From positions 6,888-46,206 of the forward strand of contig CAZYZB010000001.1 of the NCBI GenBank assembly GCA_964651405.1: DNA of 39,319 bases, read 5' to 3'. Positions 9,770-39,319 of this stretch are shown piece after piece. This DNA comes from an uncultured archaeon. GTDB lineage: Archaea > Aenigmatarchaeota > Aenigmatarchaeia > Aenigmatarchaeales > Aenigmatarchaeaceae. The notes below the pieces were generated by a model. That model was given only the letters and a program-made list of their open reading frames with translations, made no database searches and had not been told where the DNA came from. Every line of letters starts with the position of its first letter. The first letter of the stretch is position 1. The translations under genes and the position numbers were made by a program.

Positions 9770-10543
9770 TCACTTTCTAAGCTTTCCTACAAATCTTCGA
9801 AAGAAATTAGGCTTCCTATAATCAACACCTGCAATTTTTGATGCAATTTCAAAAAATGCTATGCTGGACGGAGAGTTTTGCTTAGAAATTGTCACAAGAG
9901 TTTTTTTGTTTGCACTTTCCATTATTTTTTCATCTTCAGGTATTATACCTATTATTGGAAGCTCAGTAAACTGTTTTATTTCATCAAGTTTAATTTCATA
10001 GGGCTTTTTTCTAACCCTATTTAATATTATTCCAAGTGGCAGAGGTCTATTTTCTAATGTATTGATTAACTGATGGCATTTAACTACGTCTACAAGAGAT
10101 GGAACATGCGGATTTGCAACAAACAAAGCTTCATCACTAGCTTGCAAGGCTATTAAACTTTCACGTCCTAGACTAGGTGCAGAATCGAGAAGGACGATGT
10201 CATAGTTAGCGAAGGCAAGTTTTAATTTTTCCTTAAAATTATTCACATCAATATTAACAATGTCTCTAAAATCTAGAGACGCTGGCACGATTTTTAAACC
10301 AGAATGATGAGTATAAACAGCGTCTTCTAACCTAGACTCATTCTTCAAAAAGCTGTTTAGTGTTACAGGATAAGAGTACAAACCAAAAAGTAGGCCTAAA
10401 TGAGAAGTAGTGAGATTGCAGTCTACAACTACAACTTTCTTATAAAACTTCTGTAGGGCTATGCCTAAATTAGATGCTACAGTTGTCTTTCCGACACCGC
10501 CTTTGCCTGAGCAAACATCAATTATTCTTACCATGTTTATCAT
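9770..10543 (-). CDS. minD: MinD/ParA-family deviant-Walker-A ATPase (paralogue 2) with a C-terminal amphipathic tail
   Basis: The sequence MINMVRIIDVCSGKGGVGKTT carries the deviant Walker A, and IVLLDSAPS is the Walker B. By eye it is roughly 45 percent identical to paralogue 1. The C-terminus is KPNFFRRFVGKLRK. The switch region is again VDCN. Its start overlaps the upstream gene by 26 nt (17 nt if ATG 10534 is used). Confidence 0.85.
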   Translation of the reverse strand: MINMVRIIDVCSGKGGVGKTTVASNLGIALQKFYKKVVVVDCNLTTSHLGLLFGLYSYPVTLNSFLKNESRLEDAVYTHHSGLKIVPASLDFRDIVNIDVNNFKEKLKLAFANYDIVLLDSAPSLGRESLIALQASDEALFVANPHVPSLVDVVKCHQLINTLENRPLPLGIILNRVRKKPYEIKLDEIKQFTELPIIGIIPEDEKIMESANKKTLVTISKQNSPSSIAFFEIASKIAGVDYRKPNFFRRFVGKLRK

Positions 10544-15471: not shown

Positions 15472-16356
15472 GTGAATCGTATGTTTGAAAAAATAGTATA
15501 TTTTGTTTTATTTTTAGTTATCGCAGTTGTTTTCATATTTTTAGCAGCGCCAATACCAGTCTTAGCAGCATATAACACAACTGACATAGACATTAACATT
15601 TCTGAATTGTCGCAAATAACCCTGATGCCAACTTATTTGAACTGGACGCAGATAATTACAGGAACAACAGGTGGTCATAAAAACATAACTGTAAAGAACA
15701 TAGGCTCAGTAAATGTCTCGCAGATTTATGCGTACGTTAATACATTGCTAAATGAAACTACAAGACCCTATGGTTCTTCTGATGCATCAAAATATTCAGC
15801 CGGTGGCGTACTAACAATTAGAAATGAGACCGATGCAAAGTATTATTACCTAGGAAAGTTAGAATGGAACTGGACAGAAGACATACCAACTCATGATTGG
15901 TCAGATTTGACTAACATTACTTCATGGGGGTATTTCAGAAATCTAACAGATTCTTATGTTTGGGCAATTGGTGGAACTAATGGTACTTGTAATAATACTC
16001 TAGTCCAATTGGCATTGGAAAATGACAAAGATACAGGTGTTTCAGAAACAAGGTACCCGAGAACCAGTAACATAACTAATAACGGTGCTGATGCAAATTG
16101 GTCTTATTTCAGTGTTGTCGGTGAACCTTTATACGGATACTGCATAGCAGTTTACAAGGATTGCCAAAAGATATACATTTATAATTTCGATGAAAGAACA
16201 AGTCCAAACTTTCAGACATGTACAGAAGCTGACCATCTATACTATGGGAACTTAACTCCAGGAGACACAATCATACTAAAAGTTGATCCTTGGGTTCCTT
16301 GGGGAACTCCAGCAGGAAACTTAACTCAAACAACTTTAACAGTAGTAGGCTCTTAA
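15472..16356 (+). CDS. Secreted sequon-rich protein, tandem paralogue A (candidate surface or filament subunit)
   Basis: The Sec-type signal ends ...APIPVLA, followed by AYNTTDIDINISE. The likely start is ATG 15481 (the track uses GTG 15472). By eye it is ~90 percent identical at nucleotide level to paralogue B in the N-terminal half, and near-identical over the last 141 nt. Confidence 0.75.
   Translation: MNRMFEKIVYFVLFLVIAVVFIFLAAPIPVLAAYNTTDIDINISELSQITLMPTYLNWTQIITGTTGGHKNITVKNIGSVNVSQIYAYVNTLLNETTRPYGSSDASKYSAGGVLTIRNETDAKYYYLGKLEWNWTEDIPTHDWSDLTNITSWGYFRNLTDSYVWAIGGTNGTCNNTLVQLALENDKDTGVSETRYPRTSNITNNGADANWSYFSVVGEPLYGYCIAVYKDCQKIYIYNFDERTSPNFQTCTEADHLYYGNLTPGDTIILKVDPWVPWGTPAGNLTQTTLTVVGS
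16216..16356 (+). repeat. Near-identical 141-nt 3' block shared by the tandem paralogues (copy 1)
   Basis: The block acatgtacagaagctgaccatctatactatgggaacttaactccaggagacacaatcatactaaaagttgatccttgggttccttggggaactccagcaggaaacttaactc... has only about 3 mismatches against 17150-17290. Confidence 0.85.
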
Positions 16357-24499: not shown

Positions 24500-26409
24500 G
24501 TTAGTCTTTTAAGACTACTAAGTATTTCAGCTTTTCTCTGTGATTCTGACTTGTTAATTTTATTTATCTTTTTTGCTTTAGTTGGTTTTGGTACTTTAGG
24601 CTTGGCTTTTTTTGGCTTGAACACCTTTTTAGGATAAATCTTCGGTTTTCTTTCTTTTTTCTCAATAACCTTTTTTTGAACTTGTTTTTTCTTCACTTCT
24701 TTTTCAATTTTTTTAATATTTTCTGGAGTTTCAGTAATTTCTTCTTCATCTACTATTTCATTTTTTTTAGTAGTTTCACTTTTCTTAGGTTTTTCAGTTT
24801 CTTCCTTTTCTTCATGTTCCTCCTCAGCTTTTTTTGTCTTAGGAGATTCAACCTCCTCTTCCTTTTCAGAGGTCTTTAAAAATTCTCCAACTTTTTTCCA
24901 TTCATCTTCTAAGCTGAGTCTTATTTCTTCTAATCTTTTCAAGTTTGCATCTTTGATGTTTGTGAATTCATCTTTTGATATTTTTCCTCTTTCATGCTGC
25001 TCTTCTAAGGATTCTAAAAGTAATTTTATATCTTCTCTTTCTTTTCTAAGATTGATTATATCCTCAGGTAATTTTAGTTCTGCTATGGGGAGAACCTTCT
25101 TTATGTCTTCGATTTGTTTTTTAATCAGCATGTTGTCTTCTTTGAAAGCGTCCAGATCCTTTTTGGTTATATATCCTTCAAACTTTACGTTCAAAGAATC
25201 AATATTTTTTATTACATCCTTTAAGCTTTCGTTGAAATCTTCTTGTTTAGATTTTATTATTAAAAGATCTTGTAAACCTCTGTTAAGGTCTATGAACATC
25301 TTTTCTGTTTTAGTTCCTATTCTTTCTATATACTTCATTACCTCGTTTATCTCTTCCAATTTTTTCTGAACTTGTTGATTTACATTTGTCAAATTTTCAA
25401 TTCCACCGATGCTCTTAAGTAATTCAAAAACTTTATTTATTTTTTCTCCAGCATCTTCTGCTTTCTTGCTAAGCTTTTCTAATTCAAGTTGATTTTTTTC
25501 GAAATTCTCGTTATATTCTCTGAATTTTTTCTGAATCTCTTGTGGTTTAACTTCGGATATTTCATCTTCTATTCTTTCCATTTTTAATGAGACTTCTTTT
25601 AGTTCAGCATCTGCTTGGAAGACCATTGACCTTAACTCTCCTATATTCTCAGAAAGGCCTCTAGCAGTTTCATCAGTTACCTTACCACTTTCTCTTACTG
25701 TATCAATCATTACCTTTAATTTTTCTATTTCTACACTGTAATCAGTGTCATTTGTTTTATTTTTTTCTGCACCTGAAGATTCAGGAACACTTTCAGCTGA
25801 TGCTTCAGGTAAAGGCTTCGCTCCTTCTTTTTTACCAAATATAGATTTTAATAGTCCACCAGATTTTTTCTCTTTCGAATCTTCTTTTCCTTCTTCTGTT
25901 TGGCCTTCTGATTGTTCTTTTACTTGTTGAGCTAATCTTTCTATTACCTCAGGAGTTATTTCAGTAATTTCTTCTTCCTTTTCCTTAGATTTTTTATCTT
26001 TTACTGGCGGATCATCAGTTGTAGGCTGTTCTGTATATTGTTTAGGTTGTTCAATAGATCCAGATTCTTTCTTCTTTCCAAATATTGATTTAAAGAAACC
26101 TCCTTTCCTTTCTTCCTTTTTAGGTTCTTCATGCATCTCTTTTTCCACTACTTCTTCAACTTTTTTTAAATGTTCCTCAACCTCTTTTGGTTCCACTTCT
26201 TCATTTTCTTCTTCCTCAATCTCTTCTTCAGTTTCTTTTTTCTTTTCAATCTTAGAATCGTTTTTTAGCATTTTATTATATTTTTCTTTCAAATCCTTGT
26301 ATTGCTTTTCAGAAATATTTGCCTTTCTGTACTCGCTTTCTAAGTGTAACAATGAATTCCTTACATCTTCTTTTGGTTCTTTATTAGGTTCTTCAGCTTT
26401 CCTTTTCAT
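24496..26409 (-). CDS. Highly charged (K/E-rich) 637-aa cytoplasmic coiled-coil protein with two MinD-MTS-like amphipathic motifs and two SHOCT-like motifs
   Basis: Its ATG lies 1 nt after the giant gene's stop (TAGaATG), so it is probably co-translated with it. It has no hydrophobic segment. The amphipathic motifs are GGFFKSIFGKKKES and GGLLKSIFGKKEGA. A central ~250-aa heptad-rich region is followed by a Lys-rich C-terminal tail. Confidence 0.75.
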   Translation of the reverse strand: MKRKAEEPNKEPKEDVRNSLLHLESEYRKANISEKQYKDLKEKYNKMLKNDSKIEKKKETEEEIEEEENEEVEPKEVEEHLKKVEEVVEKEMHEEPKKEERKGGFFKSIFGKKKESGSIEQPKQYTEQPTTDDPPVKDKKSKEKEEEITEITPEVIERLAQQVKEQSEGQTEEGKEDSKEKKSGGLLKSIFGKKEGAKPLPEASAESVPESSGAEKNKTNDTDYSVEIEKLKVMIDTVRESGKVTDETARGLSENIGELRSMVFQADAELKEVSLKMERIEDEISEVKPQEIQKKFREYNENFEKNQLELEKLSKKAEDAGEKINKVFELLKSIGGIENLTNVNQQVQKKLEEINEVMKYIERIGTKTEKMFIDLNRGLQDLLIIKSKQEDFNESLKDVIKNIDSLNVKFEGYITKKDLDAFKEDNMLIKKQIEDIKKVLPIAELKLPEDIINLRKEREDIKLLLESLEEQHERGKISKDEFTNIKDANLKRLEEIRLSLEDEWKKVGEFLKTSEKEEEVESPKTKKAEEEHEEKEETEKPKKSETTKKNEIVDEEEITETPENIKKIEKEVKKKQVQKKVIEKKERKPKIYPKKVFKPKKAKPKVPKPTKAKKINKINKSESQRKAEILSSLKRLT

Positions 26410-26410
26410 T

Positions 26411-27526
26411 CTACTTCATCTTTTCAATTCTTTTCTCAATGGATTCTAAATATGTCTCTGCCATCTTAAATGCAGCTGTTTTTACTTTATCCTTTACAAT
26501 ATTTAATTCAACTTCTATATCATAAGTATCTATTTTATTGGTTTTCATCTTTCCTATTACAGCATCAACAGCTTCTATCCTCTTATTCAATTTTATGTAT
26601 GTGTCAATTTCTTCATCTGTTAATGCAAATGGTGAGTGCAACAAAGGTCTAAAACTAAGGAACCACGGTCTTCCATTGTTATATTCTGGGTTCTGGAATA
26701 GGCCGGTTCCGATGGTAAGCCTAGTGACCTTAGATGCATAATCCACGCCGTACTTTGATTTTACTCTTCCTATGTCACCTTCATACTTTGTTCTCAACTG
26801 TATTTCGTTTGCTATGTTAGCTCTTATTGCACCCTTGAAGTCTAACAACACCTGTGATATTAGGAATACGCCGATGCCCCACTTTCTGAATTCTCTACAT
26901 GCTCTTTCTATTGCTATATAGCCGCCTTTACCTCCATACTTTGGCAACAATCTGTGGACTTCGTCGTATACAAGTAAGAGCTTAATTTGTTTAGACTCTC
27001 CTGGTCTCATATCGAATATTGCCTGTATGCTTCTTCTGACGAAATGATCAAGTTTTTCAGCAGGCAGTCTGTTCATTACAAATACTGTTATTTCTCCTGG
27101 AATCATGTACTTCTTTATGTCAATCTGCATGTCCGGGTCTTCAACTAAAATTATGTTTGTCTTAAAGCTTCTGACATCTGTTGGCTTCAATCCGAACTTC
27201 GGATATAAGTCAATCATTGCCTGTAATTTACATGGTTTCATGAAACCTGTCCATTGTGCTGTAGGATCAAAGACTATGATAGGTACTTTTCTCTTCAAAA
27301 GTTCTTCTGAACATACTTGTGCAGAAACGGACTTACCGGAACCTGTTCCTCCTGCGGCTATCGAGTGCATTACAAGCTGTGGAATGTTTATGTAGGCTTT
27401 TACATCAGTTTCTGCAACTCTACCGACTTCTATTGCATCTGGACCTGCTTTTGGAAGTGTGTTAAAGTCAAGAGGAGCTACGTATCTTGCTTTTGCTATC
27501 TTAGATGCTCTATAAGATGAGTACCA
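26411..27526 (-). other. Cytoplasmic HerA/FtsK-superfamily (DUF87-like) P-loop ATPase domain of the giant protein
   Basis: The Walker A is HSIAAGGTGSGKSVSAQV (GTGSGKS at ~27329-27349), followed by IIVFDPTAQWTGF. The Walker B is KLLLVYDEVHRLLP (~26944-26990). GIGVFLISQ plus the IRANIANEIQLR region is typical of HerA/FtsK-type ATPases. This domain contains no N-x-S/T sequons. Confidence 0.75.
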
Positions 27527-30500
27527 TCTCATGAATATTATTATGAGTGGAACTCCTACCAGCAGGACAACATAAGTTAGCCAATTAAGGAATACAGATC
27601 TTAATATTAATAATGGCCAAGGTAAACTGCTTACATCAAAATTATCAGTTGATGTTGCAAACTTCTTTCCATACCAATATGACGCATTAGCTTCAAGTAT
27701 GTATTTATCTTCTGGAGTTTTTGCCGGTATGTTAATAGTGCTTCTATAAGTTGCTACATCTTCTACTGCTAGTGTTTCTTTTGAACTCGTTACAATATAT
27801 GATTGATTGTTCAATGCATACACACTGTAAGTAACGGTTATATCCTCTACCTTTGCTGTCTCACCCATATTCATTAAAGATATTTCAAACGAAAGATTTG
27901 AGCCAGGACTAACTTCTTTTGACAAAATCTTTACCTTAACATCGAGCAAAGGTTCTATTAAGGCCTGAACATTAACTGTTACAGGTGTTCTATGAGTTAC
28001 AGCACCTGCCTTAACTACTATCTCACCTGTGTAGATTCCAGGGATTGTTTTTGTTGATGCCGCAGCTTTTATTTCTATTACTTCTGTTGATTTACGTCCT
28101 ATAGTTAAAACTGGCTTTTGTATAGTTAACAACTTGAAAACAGGTCCTTCTGCAACAACTGTTGCTGATACTGAAGTTTCTAAATTATTTGTTACATCTA
28201 CTGAAAATGTCTTTTCCTCTCCAGGTGCTAGTGTAGTTTCTATCAATGTTGACTTTACTTCTAATGGTACTGGTGTTACTGGTACACTTGGTACTCCTCC
28301 GGCTCCTGCAGCTCCTCCTCCACCTGCTCCACCAGCACCTCCTGCGCCCGCTCCTCCGCCTGCGCCCCCTCCACCACCTCCACCTCCTCCGCCTGGTGGT
28401 GTTGGAGGTATTGGAATATACGGGCAATCTGTTGGACAGTTTGTTGTGCTTTCACCATAACTTGAATCACACTCTCCATTTCCACAAATATACTCTGCTA
28501 ATATGTAAGCTCCATTAAGTGTTGTGTTGACACTAACGCTCAGACTGGTTAGGTTTACAGAACCGTCTGAATTATCATATCCAACATTACTTATTCTCGT
28601 CCAAAGAGTATTTTGTGCTGTAGTAATTTTTGGTGTCCAATTAGCATTATACCTATAAATTCCTAAATGTTGAGGATCATATATTGGAATGCTGCAACCA
28701 CCGCTTGCACAATCTGAAAAGTCTATTACTATTTTTGCAGACGAATACGGTAAGGAGTTGCTTATGTAAATTCCTTTTAATGCGCTTATTGTAGTTCTAA
28801 CTCTCGGAATGTTGCCTAATGATATTGGGTTATAATAACTGACTGTTATGTTATATCCATAAAGCTTTAGAGTATTCAAAAAGTTTGTAGCATGCGTGCT
28901 TATCTCTAGATTATAGTTCTTTGCATCAATGGTTTCATTATAATAGCCAGTTGATGAATTTGATGTGAAATTAAACCTTAAGGAGTTTGTTCCTAGATCT
29001 AGGAACCTAAAGTTGAAAAGCAATGGATTCTCGCTGGCACTCTCTACATCCTTTGCATAGCCGCTAAATATCACAGTTGGATAAATCTCAAATATAGTAG
29101 TAGTTGAATTACAATTTCCTGACAGATCACATGCTCTCGCATATATGGTGTAATTTCCTAGCTGAGAAGTGTTTGTGAAATTAAATTCATAAATATAAGT
29201 TTCAATGGAAGTTGAGATCAATGCTAGGTTAATTGTTAAATTAGAACTGTCAGGATAGATTATGTTTGAGGTTAAATTCTTAAGAATTCCAGATTCGATT
29301 ATAATCTCCCTTATGTTAAGAGTTGTGTTCGCAGGTATTCTGACTGGTATGCTTATGTTTATTTTAGGAGCAGTAGAGTCATTATAGACAATAGAGTTAT
29401 ATTTTACATCCGACCTCGTATTGTTGTAAGTGCCATTGTGACTTGCTGTTACATTTAAATTATAGGCTCTTTCTAAAGCAAAGTTTGGTGCTGTGAAGTT
29501 TACTAGCCATAGATTCTGAGGCGAGTCAAATGACGAGCTAGCAACAGTTACGTTAGATATAGTGTCATTAAACAACTTTATTACAAATGTTGTGTTTGAG
29601 TTTACTATGGTTCCATTTTCCGTTACATTAACCTTTACCTGTATCACATTGCCTGGATTTACTCCAAGCTTTGGATTTGTTTCATTTGGGTATATTATCT
29701 TTACATTGTATGGAGTTACAAACAAACTCACGAAAGTTGATTTTTCTTTTTGAGAGGCATTTTCTCTTAGAGCTCCTGTAAGGTTAGTAGTAATGTAACC
29801 AGTATAATTAGTGTCGTATACTATGCTTGGAGAGGAATAATTAATCTTAATAGTTTTCATTTCTCCATAGCTTATATTAGTGAAATTACCAAGTGTCAAA
29901 TAAGGTGCTATTGTTCCGTTGACAGTTATTTCTAAAGGTACTTGAGAGTTTCCGGTGTTAGTAATATTTATTTCTCCATATATTCCTGTTTCATTGTCAA
30001 GTATTCTCTTGTATATTTCTGTTGGCTGATGAATCCAAGACGTGTTTGCAGGAACAAGTATGCTAACTGGTAAAGTGGTTGAAAAGTTTTGAGATTGTAT
30101 ACTATCAAACCAATTAACAGAAATTGTTCCAGTATGAGTGCCGGTCGGATAATTATAAGGAATTATGAAAGTTATGTTAACGTAAGTTATGTTGCCTATA
30201 GGCAGTTGAGATATGTTTTGAGGGTTAAGAGTAACATTAAAGTTCTGACAAACTATGCCTGATATACAGTTCAAAGAAATATTTGTAGCATTGTCATTAC
30301 CAATAGACCTTAATGTTATATTTATAGTTTCGTTGGTTGCAGCAAAGATCAATCTGTTTATTTCATTCTCTACTATGTCTATGAAAGGATTACGTGTAAC
30401 ATTTAATTCAAGTGTTGCTTTACTTGAATTGAAAGTGTTGTTTAAGTTAGTCCAATTAGCATTAAAATCAACATAATAAATTCCAGGCTGGGTTGCATTT

Positions 30501-33500
30501 GAAACAGTAATTGTGGTTGTATTATATTGAGAAGCATTTCTGACTAATATTGCGTATGAATAATTATTTGGTGAGGCAGTTACGTTGATAGAGCTGTTTA
30601 TTGAAGCATTTATGTTCGTTGCTCTTGAACCTCCAATGTTGCTTACAGAGAAGTTTATTACAAAACTTTGGCCCCACTCTTGTGTTATGTTTGTTATTTT
30701 TATCAAGGTTGCATTGGGTGTTATTTGAATTATTGTTGTATCAGAGCTTGTGATATTATACGGAGAAGTACATGTTATAAGCGATGCTGTATCATTAGCA
30801 CAAATTATAATTTGGTGAGTCCCTGCTATCGGATAAACGTAAGTTGTATTATAAATATTACTCGAGTAATTTTGCAGTAGCATTATAAAACTAGAACTGT
30901 TCGGAGGAGTTATATTTACCCAAGCTTTATCAACTGCTATGTTATCAGTTATTCTTGCTTGTATAGAAACATTTTCATAGCCAAATTCAAACTGCATCGG
31001 ATTTATATTAATATCAGTTATTATCGGTGGGATATCTCTTGTATCTAAAGTAAGATTAATAACTTTACTTGATGGAGTTCCAGAAGATGTTAATGTTATT
31101 GTGGCATTCCACAGCTGCTGAACTGCATTTGTAGGAGTTATCCAACCTATTAACAAATCTTTTCTTGCTTGTTTCTCTAACTCAAATGCGTATGGGAATG
31201 TTGTGTTTTCTATTGTTAGATACCCGTTATCTCCGGTGTTAAATGTCTCAAATTGCAATTTAACATTTCCTATATTGCTAACATTTATGTATCCTATGGT
31301 ACCATTTGTGTTTGGTGGAGCGCTTATCGTGCCAAAAGATTCAGGTATTCTTTCCCATGAGTTATTTGTTGGAACTGTTATATTCATGAAGACATATTTT
31401 TCACCAGCGTTGCTTGATGAAACATTTATGTAAGACCAATAATTTCCTGGAGGCTGTCCTGCAGGAACTTGTATTTTAACTACTACTGAAGCATTGCTAC
31501 CAGGCTCTAATGTTCCAGGTTTTTCTGGTATAAATGTTACAATACAAGATGGACATGCATAAACAATGTTTCCTGGCTGATTTTGTGGAAGCAATGAAAC
31601 CATTATACTCGTTACTCTGTAGTTTCCACCAGAGAGAGCCGTAAAGTTACCTACAGTGGTTTCTTTATCATGCGGAGTAGTTTGATATATTGAAGTCGGT
31701 GAAACATCAAGTATTGGATTTGAAGAAACCAATATATCTGTTAAGTTCATTGTTTCATTTAATGTCAAGTCAGGATTTCTCCAACTACCAACAGTGTATG
31801 CTTTAATTAGGCTAGGGATAGTTTTTGTTGGAACAGTTACATTGAATATCCAAGAGCATACTTGATTAGCATAAAGTGTGCCGCAATATTTATAAGAGTC
31901 ATTATAAGATATTGATCCAGATGGATTTTCTTGGTGAGTAAGATTTACATTGTAAGCAGTTGCTGGACCTAAATTTGTGAAATTAGTATACACAGTAAAG
32001 GTATAACCATGGGTTTGATTGACTCCAAATGCAGTAATGCTTAGAGGAGATTGCTGAACGAAACCATTTATTTTACCCCACACACTTAAGTTTCCAGCAT
32101 AGCTGCTATTTATGTTATACTCTGGTCCAGAGTCTTTTGCAAATATACTAACATTATAAAACCCTTCTATAGGGGCAGTATAATTAGCACTATATATTGC
32201 CCTATAAAATCCAAACCCTGTTTCAGGAATAGTGATATTGCTCATGTAAACAATAACTGTTCCATTTGGCGCTGTTATATTAGCCCAAACAGAATCTATT
32301 TCATAATTATCTTCAACTTTTGCTGTTATATTCGTTATATTCAAATTAGCTTCTATGCTTTCATTTGGTATCATTGAAATATTGTAAATTTTAGGAGCTT
32401 CTATATCTTTTATCCAAAGAGTTTCAACATCATTTGGTATATTTGCTGTATAGAATTGAGTATCGTTGTTACCGATAGTGCAATTAAATGTAATATTTCC
32501 TTTTTGAGTTGGTATAAAATTATAGTTAGCATAACCAGTAGAATTGGTTTGATATGTTCCGTTAAATGTAAAGTCTGATGCTGGCTCCCACTTATAAGAA
32601 AAGTTAATGGCGTAATCTGCTATGCCTGAAGATGAAGCTTGATCTTTAACAAAACATGTTGGATAAAACATGTTTGGATAAGATACTATACCAGTTGGTG
32701 ATATCCATTCAACAGCAGATATACCAGTTATGTTAATACTCACATTTTTACTTCCGTCATCATAATAAGGCTTAATTGCTACTGCCATTATTTGATGTGG
32801 ACCTGTTTTTTGTTGAATGACAGTTGGTAAAGGCATAGTTGTATCGTTACCTTCTGCCAACTGAATAGTTTCATTATACCATTTGATTGTTGGATTAATT
32901 ATGCTAAAACTTTCCTCATTTTCTGTTGTTCCATTTGCCCTTAAAACTATGAATGTAGACTTTGGACAAATCAAACCACTCGCACCACAATGATCAGTAT
33001 CAGGAGGAGATATTATTGTTGTATTAAGAATTCCTTTAACTGTTATTGATGTGTTGTTTGTTTGAGAATTTTCATTTTGTGAATTGGTTGCATTAATGTA
33101 AATAGTATATGGTCCAGGAGTGAATGTATCATCTGGATTGAAGTTAATCAAAGAGCACCAGCCTGTAATATTTGTTGTACAGTTTCCTAGCAAACTAGTT
33201 GAGCTATAGAAGTAAACAGATGAATTATCAGCATCTCCTATGTCAGCATCTTTAGTGTGAGCAGTTATATTTGTCTGGTGAGGGTTGAAAGAATCATTTC
33301 TATATATACTATCATATTGTCTTATTATTTGATCAATTATCAAAGGTCGTGAGAGAATTACCCAGCTTTCTCTCTTTGATATGGATGCATTATAATAAAC
33401 TGTTGTGTTATCTTCTATTTTGCAAGTTAAATTATACCAGCCAGCACTTTCAGTTGAGGTATACCAAGTTTTATTAGCATAACCGTTTGAGTCAGTTGAT

Positions 33501-36500
33501 ACATTGTCTAGTGAATTACCATTCTTGAAGAAATAAACTGTATAGTTTGACAACGGTTGAGTTGTATTACCGTCTATAACATGGCATTTAATATCAACTG
33601 CTGCACCTGCTGAATATGCAGAACCGTTTGAAGGTATTATAGAGTCGATATCGCTCCATCCATAAATATAAACTGAAGTGCTATTACTGTTGTTATCATA
33701 ATATTGCCTAGTTACGTTTGAGTAAATTGTTTCAGAACCACGCTTATAGTTTATAGGTATACTCCAAGTTGTGTTATATCCGTTTGATAAAAGATTCCAA
33801 GTAGAATTATACCAACTAACATTTGCACCTGTAACTCCCTGATTACATTCATTACTTACGCTCGAATTTAATTCTGCTGTTCTATTTCTATTTAGTATAG
33901 CTCCTGTTTTTGGATAATTCAATGAAATATTTAATTGTCCGTAAACGATAAAACTTGCATTAGTAGAATTAATAATCTGATAACAGCTAAAGCCATTCTT
34001 TTCAACAGTTCCTGTCTTCCAATATTGCAATCCAACTGAAGAACTGCAATTAGGATTATAGTTTATGCTGCAATTACCATTCGAGGATGTGCAATTAAAA
34101 GCAGAAGAATAACTAGAGCCATCTTCAGTGATATAAATTGTTCCATTGGCGTTCGTTGGGTAAGTTTGATTATCGCTGTCGTAGATTCTAAATTCTAAAA
34201 ATGCAATGTTGTTGTTAATTCTTCTTACGCTAGAATTACTTGAAGTAGTGTTTATAGTTAAAGTTACATTGTCTCTTTCTAAAGTTATGTTATTAGATTC
34301 AGTCTCATCTTTGTAACCGAACGGATCTGTTGTGTTAAACTTGTAATACAAGCGTGGGGATTGAAGCGCATAGTCGTCGCAACTAAGCCTATAAGTAAAT
34401 GATATATCCTTTCCAATTCCTTGATCCTGTTTCATCTCAATCAAGTACCATGTTACATTATCATAACTTTTCCATAAACTAACATTGTTCATGTTGAGGT
34501 CTTGATCTGTTAAGGTTACCTTAAACTCGTATAACTCTCCCCAACCTCCAATAGTTTTGGGAGTTTCTGTGCCAGGAATTACAACACGAGGATTGTACAA
34601 ATCAGGCCTATAGCCAAGATAGAATGCATTATATTTTAAAGTAGAATTGCTAGCATAATAATTCTTGCTAGCTGACATACTTATATTGTACCAACCTCTT
34701 GAAAATGGTATTTTTGTACAATTATACCATCCTAAATTTTCCATCCAACCATTGTTGTCTATTTTTGTACAATCATAGTATACTCCGGATTGGTGAGTAT
34801 ATCTATACGTAACAGTTGCATTTTCTATGTAACTACATTCGTCATTTAAAGTTCCATTGGCAGGTACAGGATCTCCGAAAATGTATCCTTGACCAGAAGG
34901 ATTTACTATTGATGGTGCTAAATAAGATTTTAATGCAAATGTGTAATTTGTACTGTTCTTATATTTGTAACATGCATCATTGTAAACTCCTCCAAACCAA
35001 TTTTGCGTGCCAGTCTTGTAATCGCACTTAGCTTGACCAGCTGGTATGTCTTGTGGGAATTTATAGGTTAAATTACTATCATCATCTGAGCTTGAAATTT
35101 TTTGACCAGCAAAATTAGTTCCGTTAGTAGTTACCCAGAAACTACCATTTACACCAGAGCCTATAGCTATATTTCCACGGTCAAAATCTGTAATCTTTAA
35201 ACTTAGATTTATGTAATCTGTTCCATTTCTCCAAACTTCAGTGTTCCCACTCATAAATGTTAAGTTAACATCATTCTTCTCTAATGAAAAGTTCTTTGGT
35301 TCTATTGTAGTTTCATATATTGTATCTCCAAACAAAGGACTATTTCCATCGTCTGTAGCATTGAATTTGAATTCCCAAATATGAGGATAAGGATCAGATT
35401 GGCTCGCTTCGCAAGCTCCTTTTGACCAACTTAAAGTTATTGTTGTGTTTATGGCAGGAGACTCGATGTTTGTTTTGTTAGCTTGTAACCAACTGCCTAT
35501 TCCAAACCTTCTTACGTAAAGTGTGGCATTAATGTAATCGTAATCATCATCGTTAACAGTCGCATTGAAATAAAATCTTTCTCCCCAACCGCCTATTTCT
35601 CCGCCTTGGGTAGAAACTATAGAGGTGTTTAAGATTGACGGCTTTGTTTCTATAAAGAATGAACCATTAACTCTAACAGATTTATTATTAAAGTAATCCT
35701 TTGTGACGTTTACGATAATATTATACCATCTAGCTCTCATGTCTGAGGTATTTCTATTACATCTATAAACCCCAGTTGTTGATAGTGGTTGAACTATTTC
35801 TGTGCAATTGTAAGTGTCATTTGTTACATTGTTTATAGCTTGCATAGTTATGCTGCTTACATTAATTTCTACGTTACAATCATCCTTAATCGCTTCATCT
35901 GTTGGAGGAACTCCAGCATTTATTGTTAAGTTTTGCTCGTCTCTTAGAACAGTCTGATCATTATAAAAGTTAGGAGACCTGTAAGCATATGGAGTATAAT
36001 TTAAATCAGCGTATATTTCTAAAGTGTAGTTTGTTGTATTTTGTTGTACATAGCAATTATCTGTTATAATACCCTTCCATTTTTGTGGTCCAGGCGAGTT
36101 GTAATTACAATCTGGATTAAAGTAATATAATACATGGCCTGAAGAATTAGTTGAGTTCATTTGAGATAAGAAAACACTTTCACTTTTTGTTATATAGAAT
36201 GTCACATTAGAATTATTAGCTGGAACATTTTTGTCTGTATCATTTACACCAAGGATTAATAAATCTACATTGTTTGAAGAACTGTCTGATCTGTTTACTT
36301 TGGTGTCGTTTCCCCAAATATAATAAATTACTGCATCATCTTTAGTTATGTTTGGTCCTTGTACAGCTGAGGTATTTCCTATATTTGTGCCATCATATAT
36401 TTGCCATCTAAACCATTTTGTATTAGTAGAATTGTCGATCTCTTCACATATGAAATCGCTCACGTTTATGCTGCAGAGGCCAATCCCATTGTTTATCGTC

Positions 36501-39319
36501 ACATTGCCTCTGTTAATCCAGCTGTTTCCATCATTTTTGCTTATGAATAAAGTACAAGTTACATTATCCAGTTGAGTGTCATTAACATTTACACTATAAT
36601 TAAATTTAGTTCCCCAGCCTTCAATAGAAGGACTGACATTTAAATTTGAATACTCAGTTGCAGTATTATTCAAATAAGTCCAGTTTACAAGCAAAGTTGA
36701 ATTATCATAGTAATAAGTTTTACTCGAGTTTACCCTTATACTGTAATAACCACCCATGTGCAGGCTCGTGTTCCATGTATTGTTGTATTGACCGCTGCTT
36801 AATTCTTGTGCAGGCGATGGTTGCAATAGCTCATATATTAAATTTGGATTTCTTTTTTCATGACTCACATTTGCACTTGTTATTGCTAAACTACATTCAT
36901 CTGAAATATTTGATGTAACATTTACTGTGAGACCAGCGACTATCATAGAACTTTGCGGAGGATAAATTATTGAGTTCTTTAATTGACCGTAAATATATGT
37001 GGTTTTATTATCGGTTTGACTAACTCCATAACAACTATCATTTAATGCTATCTTCCACCATTGTCTTCCTGCTGAAAAATTACAATCTGGTTCAAAGCTA
37101 TAATTAAAGTAACCATCACTCTTAGTCTTGATATTAGTGTAGTTAAAGAAGTTATCTCCATTTGTTGTGAACTGAACAGTTCCATTAACATTTTCAAAAT
37201 TAATTTCACCTTGTAGGTCGTCTATAAATTTAACTCCTAAATAAGTAGTTCCAGTTCCTTCTCTGCCAATTGAATCTCCATCACCGAATAAAGATACTAT
37301 GTTAGGAGAAGTTGGATCAACTGCTATTGAGAATGTATTATTACCTTGATTCGTGTAGTTAAAATTGTCTGAAACATTAAACTTGAAGAATTTATTTCCA
37401 ACGTCACTATATGTTCTGTTACAATCGAAGCTTATGCCACTAAATGCCAAATAAGCGTCTGTGCAGTTTCCTGTAGAAGGAACACATATCTTTGAACTAT
37501 AATAATCCCAATTGCCAGTAAGGTTTAACCATAATGAAACATTCAACGTGCTGCCAAGCTCACCGTCTTTATCATTATCTTCTGCATTTGTTGCAAATGT
37601 CCAAGAGTCTCCCCACGAATAATACCCAGCAGAAGTTGTGGGCGCATCTAAAGTTAATACTGGTTTTGATGTTAAGTAATAAGAATTAATCGTTAGGTTA
37701 GTTTCAGATGAAGTATAATATTGTTTTTCTGCCTTTGTTGTCACGTTAACATAACCATAGTTCCATGCTGGCGGATTTGTACCATGGGTTGTGTTTCTAA
37801 ATGTGCAGTTATAAACTCCTCCACCTTCATATATTATTGCTCCTTGAGGACTCTGATCATTAACACAATCTTTTTCTTGTGGTGTAGCTAAAAGCTGTTG
37901 TGACTTGAATGTTACATTAGCATTTGTAATCGGTCTACACTCATCAGTTATGTTAGCTCTAACGCCTACATTTTCTATTCCTTTCAGGAACAAGTGTCCA
38001 TTCAATGGTTCTAGGAAATTAACTCTTAAATCTATAGTTGTTACGTTTATGCTGAAATTAGTACTGTTTGTAATCTTGTAAGCTGAAGATGTTATTATGC
38101 CAGCTTTCCATTTTTGTGGTCCAACTTCAAAATTACATCCAGGATCGAATTGTCCAGAGCTTGTATTTATATAGCCTTGAGATGTTGAAGAGCCTACTTG
38201 TATAAAGCTACTTGCAGTATCATTAGTTACCCACATATTGCCTGTAAATCCGATTGTTGGGTAAACTCCTTTATCTCTATCGAATACTCTTACACTTAAT
38301 GTCTGAGAGCCAGAACTTCTGTTGACAATCGTACCATTGCCTTCTATATATTCCAATAAAATATCATCTTCTCTGACTGTAAATGCTCCATTAGCAGTTT
38401 CATTAATATTCTGTGGGAGCTGCGGATCTGGAGAAGTTTCACTCACGTTGAATTTAAATGCATGAGGTCCTAGTCCAGGATTATTGAATGCAGGCCATCC
38501 ATAGATTATGAAAGTTACGATTGTATTATTCCCCTGTATAGTTGTGTTTGACATGGCAGTTGCATTTGGTTGTGCCCATTCTCCTGACGGAACAGTTTGA
38601 CTAGAATTTACAAAAAGTTTTACAGTCATCGTGTCGTTGTCCTCATCTGAAGCATTAACTCTGAATATCCACCTTTCTCCCCAACCACCATCATCTTGTA
38701 TTCCTGTTGAGTTGTAAGATTGTACTACAAAGTTACTTGTTAGCACTGGTTTGGTTTCAACCCAGAAGCCTCTTTGGTTTGCTTGATAAGTTTCGTTAGT
38801 TTCATTATAATTATAATTCTGTCTAGTGGCATTCAATTTTACATCCCAGCCTTGAGCTAAGAAACCACTTGTATTTAGACTACAATTGTAACTTCCATCA
38901 CCGACGTTTACTATTGGGTTACAATAATTAATCGCAGCACCTCTTATTGCAGAAAAGTTAACATTAGCATCAGTTACTACAAAATCACATTCATCGCTAA
39001 TGTTTCCTATAATTGGAATGTTTTCTCCGTCTGGATATTCTCCTCTCAGATATTTCTCTCCGTTTGGTGATGTTATTGTGAGTAATCTTAAATCACCAGT
39101 GACATTCAATGTGAAGTTGGTTGCTGTTGCATTCAAATCCCGATAACAGCTGTCAGTCGTACCAGCTATCCAGTAATGCCTGTCAGCAGTGTGTGTGCAG
39201 TTTGGATCAAACCAATAACTGGCATTTCCCAAAGAGTCAGTAGTACTGATGTTCTCAAGCCTGTAGGCAGAAGACTCGTTAGTGACCCAAAAGCTGACAT
39301 TGACGTTGTTAGCATAAGT
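26411..39319 (-). CDS. Giant (>4,300 aa) sequon-rich surface protein fused through one TM helix to a C-terminal cytoplasmic HerA/FtsK-superfamily ATPase; the 5' end lies outside the window
   Basis: The track ORF starts at an internal TTG (39232). I translated 39233-39319 in the same frame (TYANNVNVSFWVTNESSAYRLENISTTDS) and found no stop. That stretch also matches the internal repeat pattern, so the gene continues upstream. A 12.9-kb open frame in AT-rich DNA cannot arise by chance. Confidence 0.9.
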   Translation of the reverse strand, partial: TYANNVNVSFWVTNESSAYRLENISTTDSLGNASYWFDPNCTHTADRHYWIAGTTDSCYRDLNATATNFTLNVTGDLRLLTITSPNGEKYLRGEYPDGENIPIIGNISDECDFVVTDANVNFSAIRGAAINYCNPIVNVGDGSYNCSLNTSGFLAQGWDVKLNATRQNYNYNETNETYQANQRGFWVETKPVLTSNFVVQSYNSTGIQDDGGWGERWIFRVNASDEDNDTMTVKLFVNSSQTVPSGEWAQPNATAMSNTTIQGNNTIVTFIIYGWPAFNNPGLGPHAFKFNVSETSPDPQLPQNINETANGAFTVREDDILLEYIEGNGTIVNRSSGSQTLSVRVFDRDKGVYPTIGFTGNMWVTNDTASSFIQVGSSTSQGYINTSSGQFDPGCNFEVGPQKWKAGIITSSAYKITNSTNFSINVTTIDLRVNFLEPLNGHLFLKGIENVGVRANITDECRPITNANVTFKSQQLLATPQEKDCVNDQSPQGAIIYEGGGVYNCTFRNTTHGTNPPAWNYGYVNVTTKAEKQYYTSSETNLTINSYYLTSKPVLTLDAPTTSAGYYSWGDSWTFATNAEDNDKDGELGSTLNVSLWLNLTGNWDYYSSKICVPSTGNCTDAYLAFSGISFDCNRTYSDVGNKFFKFNVSDNFNYTNQGNNTFSIAVDPTSPNIVSLFGDGDSIGREGTGTTYLGVKFIDDLQGEINFENVNGTVQFTTNGDNFFNYTNIKTKSDGYFNYSFEPDCNFSAGRQWWKIALNDSCYGVSQTDNKTTYIYGQLKNSIIYPPQSSMIVAGLTVNVTSNISDECSLAITSANVSHEKRNPNLIYELLQPSPAQELSSGQYNNTWNTSLHMGGYYSIRVNSSKTYYYDNSTLLVNWTYLNNTATEYSNLNVSPSIEGWGTKFNYSVNVNDTQLDNVTCTLFISKNDGNSWINRGNVTINNGIGLCSINVSDFICEEIDNSTNTKWFRWQIYDGTNIGNTSAVQGPNITKDDAVIYYIWGNDTKVNRSDSSSNNVDLLILGVNDTDKNVPANNSNVTFYITKSESVFLSQMNSTNSSGHVLYYFNPDCNYNSPGPQKWKGIITDNCYVQQNTTNYTLEIYADLNYTPYAYRSPNFYNDQTVLRDEQNLTINAGVPPTDEAIKDDCNVEINVSSITMQAINNVTNDTYNCTEIVQPLSTTGVYRCNRNTSDMRARWYNIIVNVTKDYFNNKSVRVNGSFFIETKPSILNTSIVSTQGGEIGGWGERFYFNATVNDDDYDYINATLYVRRFGIGSWLQANKTNIESPAINTTITLSWSKGACEASQSDPYPHIWEFKFNATDDGNSPLFGDTIYETTIEPKNFSLEKNDVNLTFMSGNTEVWRNGTDYINLSLKITDFDRGNIAIGSGVNGSFWVTTNGTNFAGQKISSSDDDSNLTYKFPQDIPAGQAKCDYKTGTQNWFGGVYNDACYKYKNSTNYTFALKSYLAPSIVNPSGQGYIFGDPVPANGTLNDECSYIENATVTYRYTHQSGVYYDCTKIDNNGWMENLGWYNCTKIPFSRGWYNISMSASKNYYASNSTLKYNAFYLGYRPDLYNPRVVIPGTETPKTIGGWGELYEFKVTLTDQDLNMNNVSLWKSYDNVTWYLIEMKQDQGIGKDISFTYRLSCDDYALQSPRLYYKFNTTDPFGYKDETESNNITLERDNVTLTINTTSSNSSVRRINNNIAFLEFRIYDSDNQTYPTNANGTIYITEDGSSYSSAFNCTSSNGNCSINYNPNCSSSVGLQYWKTGTVEKNGFSCYQIINSTNASFIVYGQLNISLNYPKTGAILNRNRTAELNSSVSNECNQGVTGANVSWYNSTWNLLSNGYNTTWSIPINYKRGSETIYSNVTRQYYDNNSNSTSVYIYGWSDIDSIIPSNGSAYSAGAAVDIKCHVIDGNTTQPLSNYTVYFFKNGNSLDNVSTDSNGYANKTWYTSTESAGWYNLTCKIEDNTTVYYNASISKRESWVILSRPLIIDQIIRQYDSIYRNDSFNPHQTNITAHTKDADIGDADNSSVYFYSSTSLLGNCTTNITGWCSLINFNPDDTFTPGPYTIYINATNSQNENSQTNNTSITVKGILNTTIISPPDTDHCGASGLICPKSTFIVLRANGTTENEESFSIINPTIKWYNETIQLAEGNDTTMPLPTVIQQKTGPHQIMAVAIKPYYDDGSKNVSINITGISAVEWISPTGIVSYPNMFYPTCFVKDQASSSGIADYAINFSYKWEPASDFTFNGTYQTNSTGYANYNFIPTQKGNITFNCTIGNNDTQFYTANIPNDVETLWIKDIEAPKIYNISMIPNESIEANLNITNITAKVEDNYEIDSVWANITAPNGTVIVYMSNITIPETGFGFYRAIYSANYTAPIEGFYNVSIFAKDSGPEYNINSSYAGNLSVWGKINGFVQQSPLSITAFGVNQTHGYTFTVYTNFTNLGPATAYNVNLTHQENPSGSISYNDSYKYCGTLYANQVCSWIFNVTVPTKTIPSLIKAYTVGSWRNPDLTLNETMNLTDILVSSNPILDVSPTSIYQTTPHDKETTVGNFTALSGGNYRVTSIMVSLLPQNQPGNIVYACPSCIVTFIPEKPGTLEPGSNASVVVKIQVPAGQPPGNYWSYINVSSSNAGEKYVFMNITVPTNNSWERIPESFGTISAPPNTNGTIGYINVSNIGNVKLQFETFNTGDNGYLTIENTTFPYAFELEKQARKDLLIGWITPTNAVQQLWNATITLTSSGTPSSKVINLTLDTRDIPPIITDININPMQFEFGYENVSIQARITDNIAVDKAWVNITPPNSSSFIMLLQNYSSNIYNTTYVYPIAGTHQIIICANDTASLITCTSPYNITSSDTTIIQITPNATLIKITNITQEWGQSFVINFSVSNIGGSRATNINASINSSINVTASPNNYSYAILVRNASQYNTTTITVSNATQPGIYYVDFNANWTNLNNTFNSSKATLELNVTRNPFIDIVENEINRLIFAATNETINITLRSIGNDNATNISLNCISGIVCQNFNVTLNPQNISQLPIGNITYVNITFIIPYNYPTGTHTGTISVNWFDSIQSQNFSTTLPVSILVPANTSWIHQPTEIYKRILDNETGIYGEINITNTGNSQVPLEITVNGTIAPYLTLGNFTNISYGEMKTIKINYSSPSIVYDTNYTGYITTNLTGALRENASQKEKSTFVSLFVTPYNVKIIYPNETNPKLGVNPGNVIQVKVNVTENGTIVNSNTTFVIKLFNDTISNVTVASSSFDSPQNLWLVNFTAPNFALERAYNLNVTASHNGTYNNTRSDVKYNSIVYNDSTAPKINISIPVRIPANTTLNIREIIIESGILKNLTSNIIYPDSSNLTINLALISTSIETYIYEFNFTNTSQLGNYTIYARACDLSGNCNSTTTIFEIYPTVIFSGYAKDVESASENPLLFNFRFLDLGTNSLRFNFTSNSSTGYYNETIDAKNYNLEISTHATNFLNTLKLYGYNITVSYYNPISLGNIPRVRTTISALKGIYISNSLPYSSAKIVIDFSDCASGGCSIPIYDPQHLGIYRYNANWTPKITTAQNTLWTRISNVGYDNSDGSVNLTSLSVSVNTTLNGAYILAEYICGNGECDSSYGESTTNCPTDCPYIPIPPTPPGGGGGGGGGGAGGGAGAGGAGGAGGGGAAGAGGVPSVPVTPVPLEVKSTLIETTLAPGEEKTFSVDVTNNLETSVSATVVAEGPVFKLLTIQKPVLTIGRKSTEVIEIKAAASTKTIPGIYTGEIVVKAGAVTHRTPVTVNVQALIEPLLDVKVKILSKEVSPGSNLSFEISLMNMGETAKVEDITVTYSVYALNNQSYIVTSSKETLAVEDVATYRSTINIPAKTPEDKYILEANASYWYGKKFATSTDNFDVSSLPWPLLILRSVFLNWLTYVVLLVGVPLIIIFMRWYSSYRASKIAKARYVAPLDFNTLPKAGPDAIEVGRVAETDVKAYINIPQLVMHSIAAGGTGSGKSVSAQVCSEELLKRKVPIIVFDPTAQWTGFMKPCKLQAMIDLYPKFGLKPTDVRSFKTNIILVEDPDMQIDIKKYMIPGEITVFVMNRLPAEKLDHFVRRSIQAIFDMRPGESKQIKLLLVYDEVHRLLPKYGGKGGYIAIERACREFRKWGIGVFLISQVLLDFKGAIRANIANEIQLRTKYEGDIGRVKSKYGVDYASKVTRLTIGTGLFQNPEYNNGRPWFLSFRPLLHSPFALTDEEIDTYIKLNKRIEAVDAVIGKMKTNKIDTYDIEVELNIVKDKVKTAAFKMAETYLESIEKRIEKMK
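27527..27622 (-). other. Single TM anchor of the giant protein
   Basis: The sequence is PWPLLILRSVFLNWLTYVVLLVGVPLIIIFM, followed by the positive-inside cluster RWYSSYRASKIAKAR. Confidence 0.7.
28291..28400 (-). repeat. GC-rich low-complexity tract encoding a Pro-rich plus poly-Gly/Ala linker
   Basis: The region encodes PYIPIPPTPPGGGGGGGGGAGGGAGAGGAGGAGGGGAAGAGGVPSVPVTPVP. Locally it is strongly GC-rich in an AT-rich window, and imperfect GGN/GCN triplet repeats are visible. Confidence 0.9.
33700..39319 (-). repeat. At least six diverged ~1.0-1.1 kb (about 330-360 aa) super-repeats in the distal ectodomain of the giant protein
   Basis: A landmark motif of the form [FY]-[DEN]-P-x-C-[NS]...W-[KF]...C-Y recurs at ~39210, 38140, 37090, 36110, 35020 (variant KCDYKTGTQNWFGG) and 34050. 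Each is followed by D-E-C, Y-[NR]-C and G-W-G-[ED]-x-[WF]-x-F...D-x-D motifs. Confidence 0.7.

Follow-up and report, generated by a model that had tools for sequence, protein, structure and literature searches.

The closest described relatives of the protein analysed here are the SPEARE proteins of Nanohaloarchaeota, which can be as long as 8,553 amino acids (aa), lie for the most part outside the cytoplasm and have their membrane helix close to the C-terminus (Hamm et al. 2019, PMC6642349). Conservation among them is highest in the cytoplasmic C-terminal region. The authors also listed members of 655 and 717 aa, pointed to relatives in Woesearchaeota, Aenigmarchaeota, Micrarchaeota and Altiarchaeales, and demonstrated expression by proteomics. 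They took the cytoplasmic portion for a type III restriction enzyme and proposed that it degrades DNA (PMC6642349). Reva, La Cono and co-workers (2023) re-examined giants of 9,409 and 8,880 aa, in which they recognised a 'VirB4/TraG-like ATPase' besides a membrane helix and a coiled coil at the end, found no endonuclease domain in these nanohaloarchaeal proteins, proposed a 'straw' similar to a type IV secretion system (T4SS) that injects effectors into the host, and reported a second VirB4-like ATPase downstream in strains SVXNc and BNXNv (PMC10266531). No later functional study of SPEARE proteins was found in our literature search. Here, we describe a giant gene in a 39,319-nucleotide stretch of DNA from an uncultured archaeon of the Aenigmatarchaeota (GenBank assembly GCA_964651405.1, contig CAZYZB010000001.1, positions 6,888 to 46,206 of the forward strand; hereafter the window), which occupies positions 26411..39319 of the window on the minus strand and encodes a member of the SPEARE family.

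A sequence-only reading of the window, made without database searches, had taken this gene product for a mega-adhesin fused to a cytoplasmic HerA/FtsK-type ATPase and was aware of no characterised protein with a motor of this kind attached to an adhesin of giant size. The claim of novelty does not hold, because the same architecture has been published as SPEARE (PMC6642349; PMC10266531). The giant adhesin-plus-ATPase design and the existence of relatives in Aenigmarchaeota are already known, and the window adds a member from Aenigmatarchaeota, a lineage of the DPANN, which are tiny archaea living as symbionts. We consider the identity and architecture of the window protein close to certain and the mechanistic part of its interpretation much less so. 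Taken as a whole, the statement that the protein is a SPEARE-family motor at the contact site, which together with a coiled-coil partner serves the transfer of macromolecules or the remodelling of the contact zone, has in our estimate a probability of roughly 60%.

Architecture and family membership of the giant protein

The open reading frame (ORF) listed for the gene comprises 4,273 aa, starting at a TTG codon at 39232 and ending with a stop codon at 26411-26413; 29 further codons are open upstream of the TTG, and the repeat pattern continues through them. The frame runs on without a stop to position 39319, where the window ends, so that the protein must exceed 4,302 aa; its N-terminus, with any signal peptide, is beyond the window. 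Residue numbers below follow the 4,273-aa numbering from the internal TTG, and all features of the gene lie on the minus strand. The apparent methionine start of the orthologue P0126 shows no signal peptide; other full-length family members do start with one.

Family membership was established by comparison with the C-terminal 358 residues of the SPEARE protein of Ca. Nha. antarcticus (NAR1_1133), as printed in Fig. S18 of the supporting information (SI) of Hamm 2019. The window domain aligns with this sequence at 38% identity over 359 columns (E 2e-100), and the motifs DPTAQW, VYDEVHRLL, REFRKWG, SQV..DF, IRANI and FRPLLHSP are common to both, which together make the window protein a member of the published family. 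Like the window protein, SPEARE proteins (NAR1_1133, SVXNc_0300 and BNXNv_0298) combine a huge adhesin-like region, one helix on the C-terminal side, a P-loop ATPase and a terminal coiled coil. Unlike them, the window protein comes from Aenigmatarchaeota and not from a halophile, its ectodomain differs in detail by having sequon-rich repeats of roughly 350 aa, and the gene downstream encodes a coiled-coil protein, whereas SVXNc and BNXNv have the second VirB4-like ATPase at that place. None of the domains that gave SPEARE its name (serine protease, laminin-G and restriction endonuclease) was detected by Pfam in the window protein; we do not count this against membership, since these domains are disputed by PMC10266531.

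The topology of the protein is marked by one hydrophobic segment, LPWPLLILRSVF-LNWLTYVVLLVGVPLIIIFM (27530..27625; residues 3870-3901), which is the sole Kyte-Doolittle peak above 1.8 within the 4,302 aa and a long helix in the AlphaFold 2 (AF2) model. Directly after it comes the cytoplasmic flank RWYSSYRASKIAKARY (27482..27529) with five positive charges, so that the single membrane helix with a positive-inside flank before the ATPase, as noted in the sequence-only reading, is upheld. The 3,869 residues before the helix contain 252 N-glycosylation sequons (N-x-S/T), 59 cysteines and 11.7% asparagine, against no sequon, three cysteines and 3.2% asparagine in the 372 residues after it, where 24 sequons would be expected at equal density. 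This asymmetry and the positive-inside flank together indicate that the large part is extracellular and the C-terminal domain cytoplasmic, as had been presumed.

The extracellular region (27626..39319) exceeds 3,900 aa and is adhesin-like and glycosylated; about six tandem units of roughly 350 aa each lie in its first 1,900 residues, and further beta-sandwich segments follow thereafter. Pfam recognised only DUF87, HerA_C and NPCBM_assoc in the giant protein, the last of these in the extracellular region, and detected no laminin-G, protease or WD40 parts in the window ectodomain.

Orthologues from independent assemblies and samples confirm that the adhesin and the ATPase are parts of one polypeptide, as had been claimed. 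P0121 is collinear with the window protein at 51% identity over 4,301 columns, P0126 at 41% identity over the whole length, and P0122 at 57% identity with the C-terminal 2,345 residues. End-to-end collinearity in independent assemblies excludes a chimeric join as far as sequence comparison allows, the layout of the family as a whole agrees with it, and on this comparative evidence, which we regard as decisive, the fusion is judged to be genuine and no assembly artefact. The notion that a chimeric assembly, a missed stop or a frameshift joined an adhesin gene to a separate gene for a transmembrane ATPase might appeal to the low-complexity poly-Gly linker at 28265-28420, which is prone to mis-joins by assemblers, and to the existence of stand-alone short forms of ~720 aa, but its likelihood is close to nil, given these orthologues, a frame with no stop codon across 12.9 kb, an ectodomain of at least 2,000 aa in 50 of 144 family representatives, a giant frame that is open across the whole fetched upstream flank (up to 8 kb) in most of 81 species-representative loci, and the partial relatives P0002, P0005 and P0021, which read through the same cysteine-motif/linker junction.

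The HerA-type ATPase

The 372 aa after the helix form a cytoplasmic P-loop ATPase domain, whose HerA-clade RecA-like core (26621..27481) was delimited with Pfam, NCBIfam, a PDB profile search, AF2 and Foldseek. The motifs quoted in the sequence-only reading are all present, namely Walker A AAGGTGSGKS (3959-3968), Walker B LLLVYDEVH (4085-4093) and GVFLISQ (4121-4127). In Pfam, both PF01935 (the DUF87/HerA central domain; E 5.6e-10, 40.1 bits against a cut-off of 23.2) and PF05872 (HerA_C; 22.7 bits against a cut-off of 22) match above their cut-offs, in line with the proposed place in the HerA/FtsK superfamily, and PF01580 (FtsK_SpoIIIE) has no match in the window protein. All NCBIfam matches are below threshold: HerA_Thermprot reaches 39 bits of the required 800, the DNA-translocating ATPase CedD 33 bits (E 2.3e-8) of the required 600, and further sub-threshold matches are to antiphage HerA, TraB, TraC and TraD.

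A profile built from 40 family sequences gave 16 hits at E <= 1 when searched against all PDB sequences. HerA of S. solfataricus (4d2i, E 5.7e-11) ranked first, followed by other HerA proteins and YjgR, with DotL (9e-4), FtsK (0.04) and TrwB (0.65) at lower ranks. The AF2 model of the last 409 residues has a mean predicted local distance difference test (pLDDT) score of 90.7 and a predicted template modelling (pTM) score of 0.86; Foldseek searches of the PDB with this model placed HerA hexamers (4d2i) on top (E 1e-12), ahead of FtsK (~4e-9) and TcpA (1.5e-8). No VirB4 structure was present among the 16 profile hits or the 50 best Foldseek hits, and Pfam detected none of PF03135 (the VirB4 N-terminal domain), PF02534 and PF10412 in the window protein at E <= 0.01. 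As HerA comes first in Pfam, PDB profile and Foldseek searches alike, the assignment of the C-terminal domain to the FtsK/HerA superfamily is borne out, with HerA as the nearest match in sequence profile as well as in predicted fold. An antiphage HerA system and a viral packaging ATPase were considered and rejected, as PADLOC and PHROGs gave just weak generic HerA/terminase matches and no effector partner.

Five active-site residues, K3967, D3989, E4091, R4116 and Q4127, are invariant in an alignment of 40 sequences of 40-70% identity. They map to K154 (Walker A), D176, E356 (Walker B), R381 and the SQ sensor of S. solfataricus HerA, respectively, for which the residue roles known from mutational work have been summarised (PMC4351679). 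With such conservation, the enzyme is probably active. The sequence-only reading had described a sensor/Arg-finger-like region from GVFLISQ to IRANIANEIQLR. GVFLISQ is present and Q4127 corresponds to the SQ sensor, but the alignment to S. solfataricus HerA puts R381, the trans-acting Arg finger, at R4116 in the segment ERACREFRKWG, so that the finger lies there, in CREFRKWG, and not in IRANIANEIQLR.

The best match by sequence profile and predicted fold is thus HerA (S. solfataricus 4d2i; also HerA-NurA and antiphage SIR2-HerA), with which the window ATPase has in common Walker A, the D176 equivalent, the Walker B glutamate, a trans-acting Arg finger and the SQ sensor. Unlike HerA, it lacks the N-terminal HAS barrel, which is absent from the AF2 model, and has the membrane anchor in that place; from the membrane helix to the strand leading into the P-loop, the model has just ~55 residues, folded as a two-strand hairpin. 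It also differs from curated HerA in falling far below the NCBIfam cut-off, and from HerA in having no NurA, Mre11, Rad50 or SIR2 partner in the window. The absence of NurA, Mre11 and Rad50 genes agrees with what the sequence-only reading had stated, and rests on Pfam and NCBIfam scans of the window ORFs of at least 100 aa that resemble genes, plus four shorter ones.

In its overall plan, the protein resembles FtsK/SpoIIIE, VirD4, TrwB, TcpA, DotL and the Ced ATPase, in all of which a membrane anchor at the N-terminus likewise precedes a cytoplasmic ATPase from the FtsK/HerA superfamily. However, FtsK, the coupling proteins and the Ced ATPase have a small ectodomain or none, and two to five helices, whereas the window protein has a giant ectodomain and one helix; they also work with defined channel or pilus partners, none of which was found in the window. 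The gamma domain of FtsK, which binds FtsK-orienting polar sequences (KOPS), and its multi-helix N-terminus are absent from the window protein, and the Pfam coupling-protein families T4SS-DNA_transf and TrwB_AAD_bind have no match in it.

Conserved C-terminal module, family spread and partner gene

The C-terminal part of the giant protein forms a module that recurs in much shorter relatives. It starts with the cysteine-rich motif CGNGECDSSYGESTTNCPTDCP (28421..28486), and the partial relatives P0002, P0005 and P0021 have this motif ahead of the linker as well. The flexible linker itself, rich in proline, glycine and alanine (YIPIPPTPPGGGGGGGGGGAGGG...VPSVPVTPVP; 52 residues, 28265..28420), has a proline/glycine-rich equivalent in the short forms and leads to a membrane-proximal region of ~213 aa (27626..28264), which probably consists of two beta-sandwich domains, as judged from its sequence, and which is conserved with the short forms P0052, P0058, P0041 and P0059 when compared by eye. 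After the helix and the ATPase core, a tail of three helices (residues 4205-4273; 26414..26620; helices 342-367, 373-387 and 391-408 of the AF2 model) ends the protein and matches the 'coiled-coil tip' of the nanohaloarchaeal giant proteins (PMC10266531).

The short relatives P0041, P0052, P0058, P0059 and others are complete, ~720-730 aa long and located on long contigs. They consist of a signal peptide, a cysteine-rich segment, a proline/glycine linker, ~210 residues that resemble two beta-sandwich domains, the membrane helix, the ATPase and a helical tail; the cysteine-rich segment of these ~720-aa forms is a different one, in place of the CGNGECDSSYGESTTNCPTDCP motif. As the C-terminus of the giant follows the same order of parts, the interval 26411-28490 is almost exactly the conserved module, and the giant form can be read, on this likeness of sequence, as the short module with a long adhesin added in front. 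One metagenome-assembled genome (MAG), CAYGBE01, has both a giant form (locus L009) and a 728-aa short form (locus L071), each with a partner gene of its own, which suggests paralogue-specific pairing.

A search with the last 449 aa against 1.84 billion representative proteins found 889 relatives, of which 359 at E <= 1e-30. Many of the best 150 are giants with the ATPase at the extreme C-terminus (4,179, 4,309, 5,201, 6,873 and 7,665 aa, and others). We examined the layout in 144 family representatives, clustered at 50% identity: a hydrophobic helix lies just upstream of the ATPase in 142 of them, the length before the helix ranges from <100 to >7,000 aa, and sequons have a median density of 4.5 per 100 aa ahead of the helix and 0.1 behind it.

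A scan of one genome per species of the Genome Taxonomy Database (GTDB) yielded at least 513 loci. Among the best 80 of these, almost all records that name a lineage belong to DPANN archaea: the nearest loci, at ~80% identity, are MAGs of Aenigmatarchaeota, and the other labels are Micrarchaeota, Nanohalarchaeota, Woesearchaeota, Altiarchaeota, Undinarchaeota, Parvarchaeota, Nanoarchaeia and Ca. Haiyanarchaeum. The non-DPANN exceptions in this set are two short contigs, one binned as Heimdallarchaeota and the other as a Halanaerobiaceae bacterium.

Downstream of the giant gene, one nucleotide past its stop, begins the ATG of a gene (24496..26409, minus strand) for a charged protein of 637 aa, predicted to be all-helical and cytoplasmic. 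In 76 of the 81 related loci, the ATPase gene is immediately followed by a homologue of the central region of this partner, whose predicted start is mostly 0-100 nucleotides from the stop of the ATPase gene. The association extends to the short forms, since at locus L001, which encodes P0052, the downstream gene of 527 aa is a homologue of the partner (30% identity, E 1.5e-25). The AF2 model of the partner consists of long helices (pLDDT 73, pTM 0.28), and nothing significant was found for it in Pfam, NCBIfam, PADLOC, PHROGs, PDB sequence or PDB profile searches, or with Foldseek. A match to DotF (E 0.006) falls in a coiled-coil stretch and is therefore discounted as bias. Some family ATPases have C-terminal extensions of 150-730 aa; we considered these as a possible fused partner and rejected the idea, as a BLAST search of the partner against all fetched family proteins gave no match. 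No discussion of the partner gene was found in the literature, including the SPEARE papers.

Genes for archaeal MinD form a looser association. The window contains two archaeal-type MinD genes (5470-6228 and 9770-10543, minus strand; TIGR01969 above cut-off), both embedded among genes for secreted or C-terminally anchored beta-sandwich proteins, and an archaeal MinD gene is present in the downstream flank of about 19 of the 81 loci, mostly right after the partner gene.

Possible roles at the contact site and surroundings of the gene

We envisage the SPEARE-family protein of the window as acting in the following way. A signal peptide, lying outside the window, would route the ectodomain through Sec, with the helix stopping transfer, and the cytoplasmic ATPase domains would assemble into a ring. 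All characterised ATPases of the FtsK/HerA superfamily act as rings, in which the Arg finger reaches the site of the neighbouring subunit, and the strict conservation of R4116 speaks for an enzyme that is active and oligomeric. By forming, the ring would gather several ectodomains where the symbiont touches the host cell. Hydrolysis of ATP, with the coiled-coil partner taking part, would then either drive the movement of a macromolecule (DNA or protein) or reshape the zone of contact at the membrane of the symbiont. By analogy with these rings, it is a reasonable inference that six ectodomains may be bundled above a hexameric, pore-like motor, as the sequence-only reading had pictured; since six single helices cannot line a channel alone, a separate channel component would be needed.

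Several points weigh against this interpretation. With one helix per subunit, a pore cannot be built, and in the window the Pfam and NCBIfam scans turned up neither a channel-forming partner nor a nuclease, a relaxase, a pilus gene or any further part of a T4SS or Ced system. The partner protein matched no recognisable family or fold in the database and Foldseek searches. In addition, peptides of the ectodomain and of the cytoplasmic part of SPEARE were found in different gel size fractions (Hamm 2019, PMC6642349), which means that the mature protein may be cleaved, possibly near the flexible linker, and that ectodomain and motor would then not be covalently linked.

One alternative is the motor resembling that of type IV secretion proposed for the nanohaloarchaeal giant proteins (PMC10266531), in which the ectodomain would be the 'straw' and a VirB4/TraG-like ATPase would pump effectors into the host. 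The sequence similarity to DotL, TrwB, TraD and TraC, though weak, the Foldseek match to the coupling protein TcpA, and the weak precomputed matches of some family members to T4SS-DNA_transf or TrwB_AAD_bind would fit such a motor, but matches to HerA are consistently stronger than those to T4SS ATPases, and the window protein has neither a VirB4 N-terminal domain nor a Pfam match to either of these two families. Together with the lack of VirB6-, VirB8-, VirB2- or relaxase-like genes in the window, and with a coiled-coil protein rather than a second VirB4-like ATPase encoded downstream, this makes secretion of the T4SS type unlikely in our judgement.

We consider it similarly improbable that the ATPase serves the import or processing of host DNA, be it through Ced-like uptake or through a cytoplasmic restriction-enzyme domain that degrades incoming DNA, the original SPEARE idea. 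HerA and FtsK are translocases of double-stranded DNA, and the closest structures are HerA hexamers; the match to CedD, however, scores 33 bits against a cut-off of 600, and the window has no gene for a CedA-like polytopic channel and its ATPase no HAS barrel of HerA. As for the degradation proposed by Hamm 2019 (PMC6642349), the window protein contains no nuclease domain, and no endonuclease domain was found in PMC10266531 either. Matches to ResIII (PF04851) occur just in the precomputed lists of relatives, beside DUF87; we read them as P-loop similarity and as the likely source of the restriction-enzyme annotation.

A third alternative is an ATPase without transport, that is, an assembly or regulatory device in which the ring, the partner and MinD-type ATPases cluster, position or reshape the adhesin and so control attachment from the inside out. 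The single membrane helix with no channel partner found, the cytoplasmic coiled-coil partner conserved in 76 of 81 loci, the MinD genes in the window and after the partner in about 19 loci, and the coiled-coil cytoplasmic tails of other anchored surface proteins of the window would all suit such a device. Against it, the linkage to MinD is limited to about a quarter of the loci, and we know of no member of the FtsK/HerA superfamily that acts as a pure clustering switch; overall, we regard this alternative as quite unlikely.

Going beyond the contact-site motor that we favour, one may speculate that the module and its coiled-coil partner, often with MinD, form the core of a DPANN-wide trans-envelope machine, in which the ATPase ring would gather several ectodomains into a host-reaching fibre or tube and supply the energy for macromolecules such as DNA or protein to pass between symbiont and host, as a system distinct from T4SS, Ced and the type VII secretion system. 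We offer this as a bold and rather doubtful proposal.

The surroundings of the giant gene contain further surface proteins. A second large one, of 1,967 aa (17291-23194, minus strand), has NPCBM_assoc and MG2 matches, a C-terminal membrane helix and a coiled-coil cytoplasmic tail, is without an ATPase, and contains segments ~30% identical to parts of the giant ectodomain; other anchored surface proteins of the window likewise have coiled-coil cytoplasmic tails. Several proteins of the cluster share a short motif, G-x-I-[ST]-x-x-x-[YF]...K, within their cytoplasmic coiled-coil segments; two copies are in the partner gene and others in the tail of the 1,967-aa protein and in the small plus-strand ORFs 23775-24182 and 24197-24499. 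It was observed five times against 0.3 expected on shuffling, the pattern having been defined after seeing the data. The motif looks SHOCT-like, but this assignment was rejected, as Pfam gives no SHOCT match even at E <= 10. A polytopic membrane protein of 154 aa (23224-23688, minus strand), with tblastn matches in 7 of the 81 related loci, has an HELSH (HExxH-like) motif in its first helix and no Pfam match; a membrane metalloprotease is one possible identity. In the opposite orientation to the rest of the cluster, two similar, sequon-rich proteins of ~295 aa with an N-terminal hydrophobic leader are encoded in tandem (15472-16356 and 16391-17290, plus strand); they match no family and have no relatives across the 81 loci.

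A gene that runs off the left edge of the window (3-4211, minus strand) encodes a large Lhr-type helicase with DEAD, Helicase_C, WH_Lhr and DEAD_assoc domains, of which Helicase_C is split by an intein bearing a LAGLIDADG homing endonuclease. ARAGORN called a 100-nucleotide tRNA-Ala at 10083-10182 (minus strand), inside the coding sequence of one of the MinD genes; this call is probably a false positive, since a search of the whole window with Rfam gave no match to tRNA or to any other RNA family.

DPANN archaea need physical contact with a host, and giant proteins of the SPEARE type are the most conspicuous candidates for a part in their attachment to it and in the exchange of material. The window adds no new kind of system and instead refines the picture of a known family. 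The additions made here are the placement of the motor in the HerA clade, the corrected position of the Arg finger, the spread across DPANN, the autonomous module of ~720 aa and the nearly universal gene for a coiled-coil partner. By profile and fold, the motor of this family is neither a restriction enzyme nor a VirB4 protein, and the residues of its active site, among them the trans-acting Arg finger, are strongly constrained in a family that extends across DPANN, well beyond the nanohaloarchaea.

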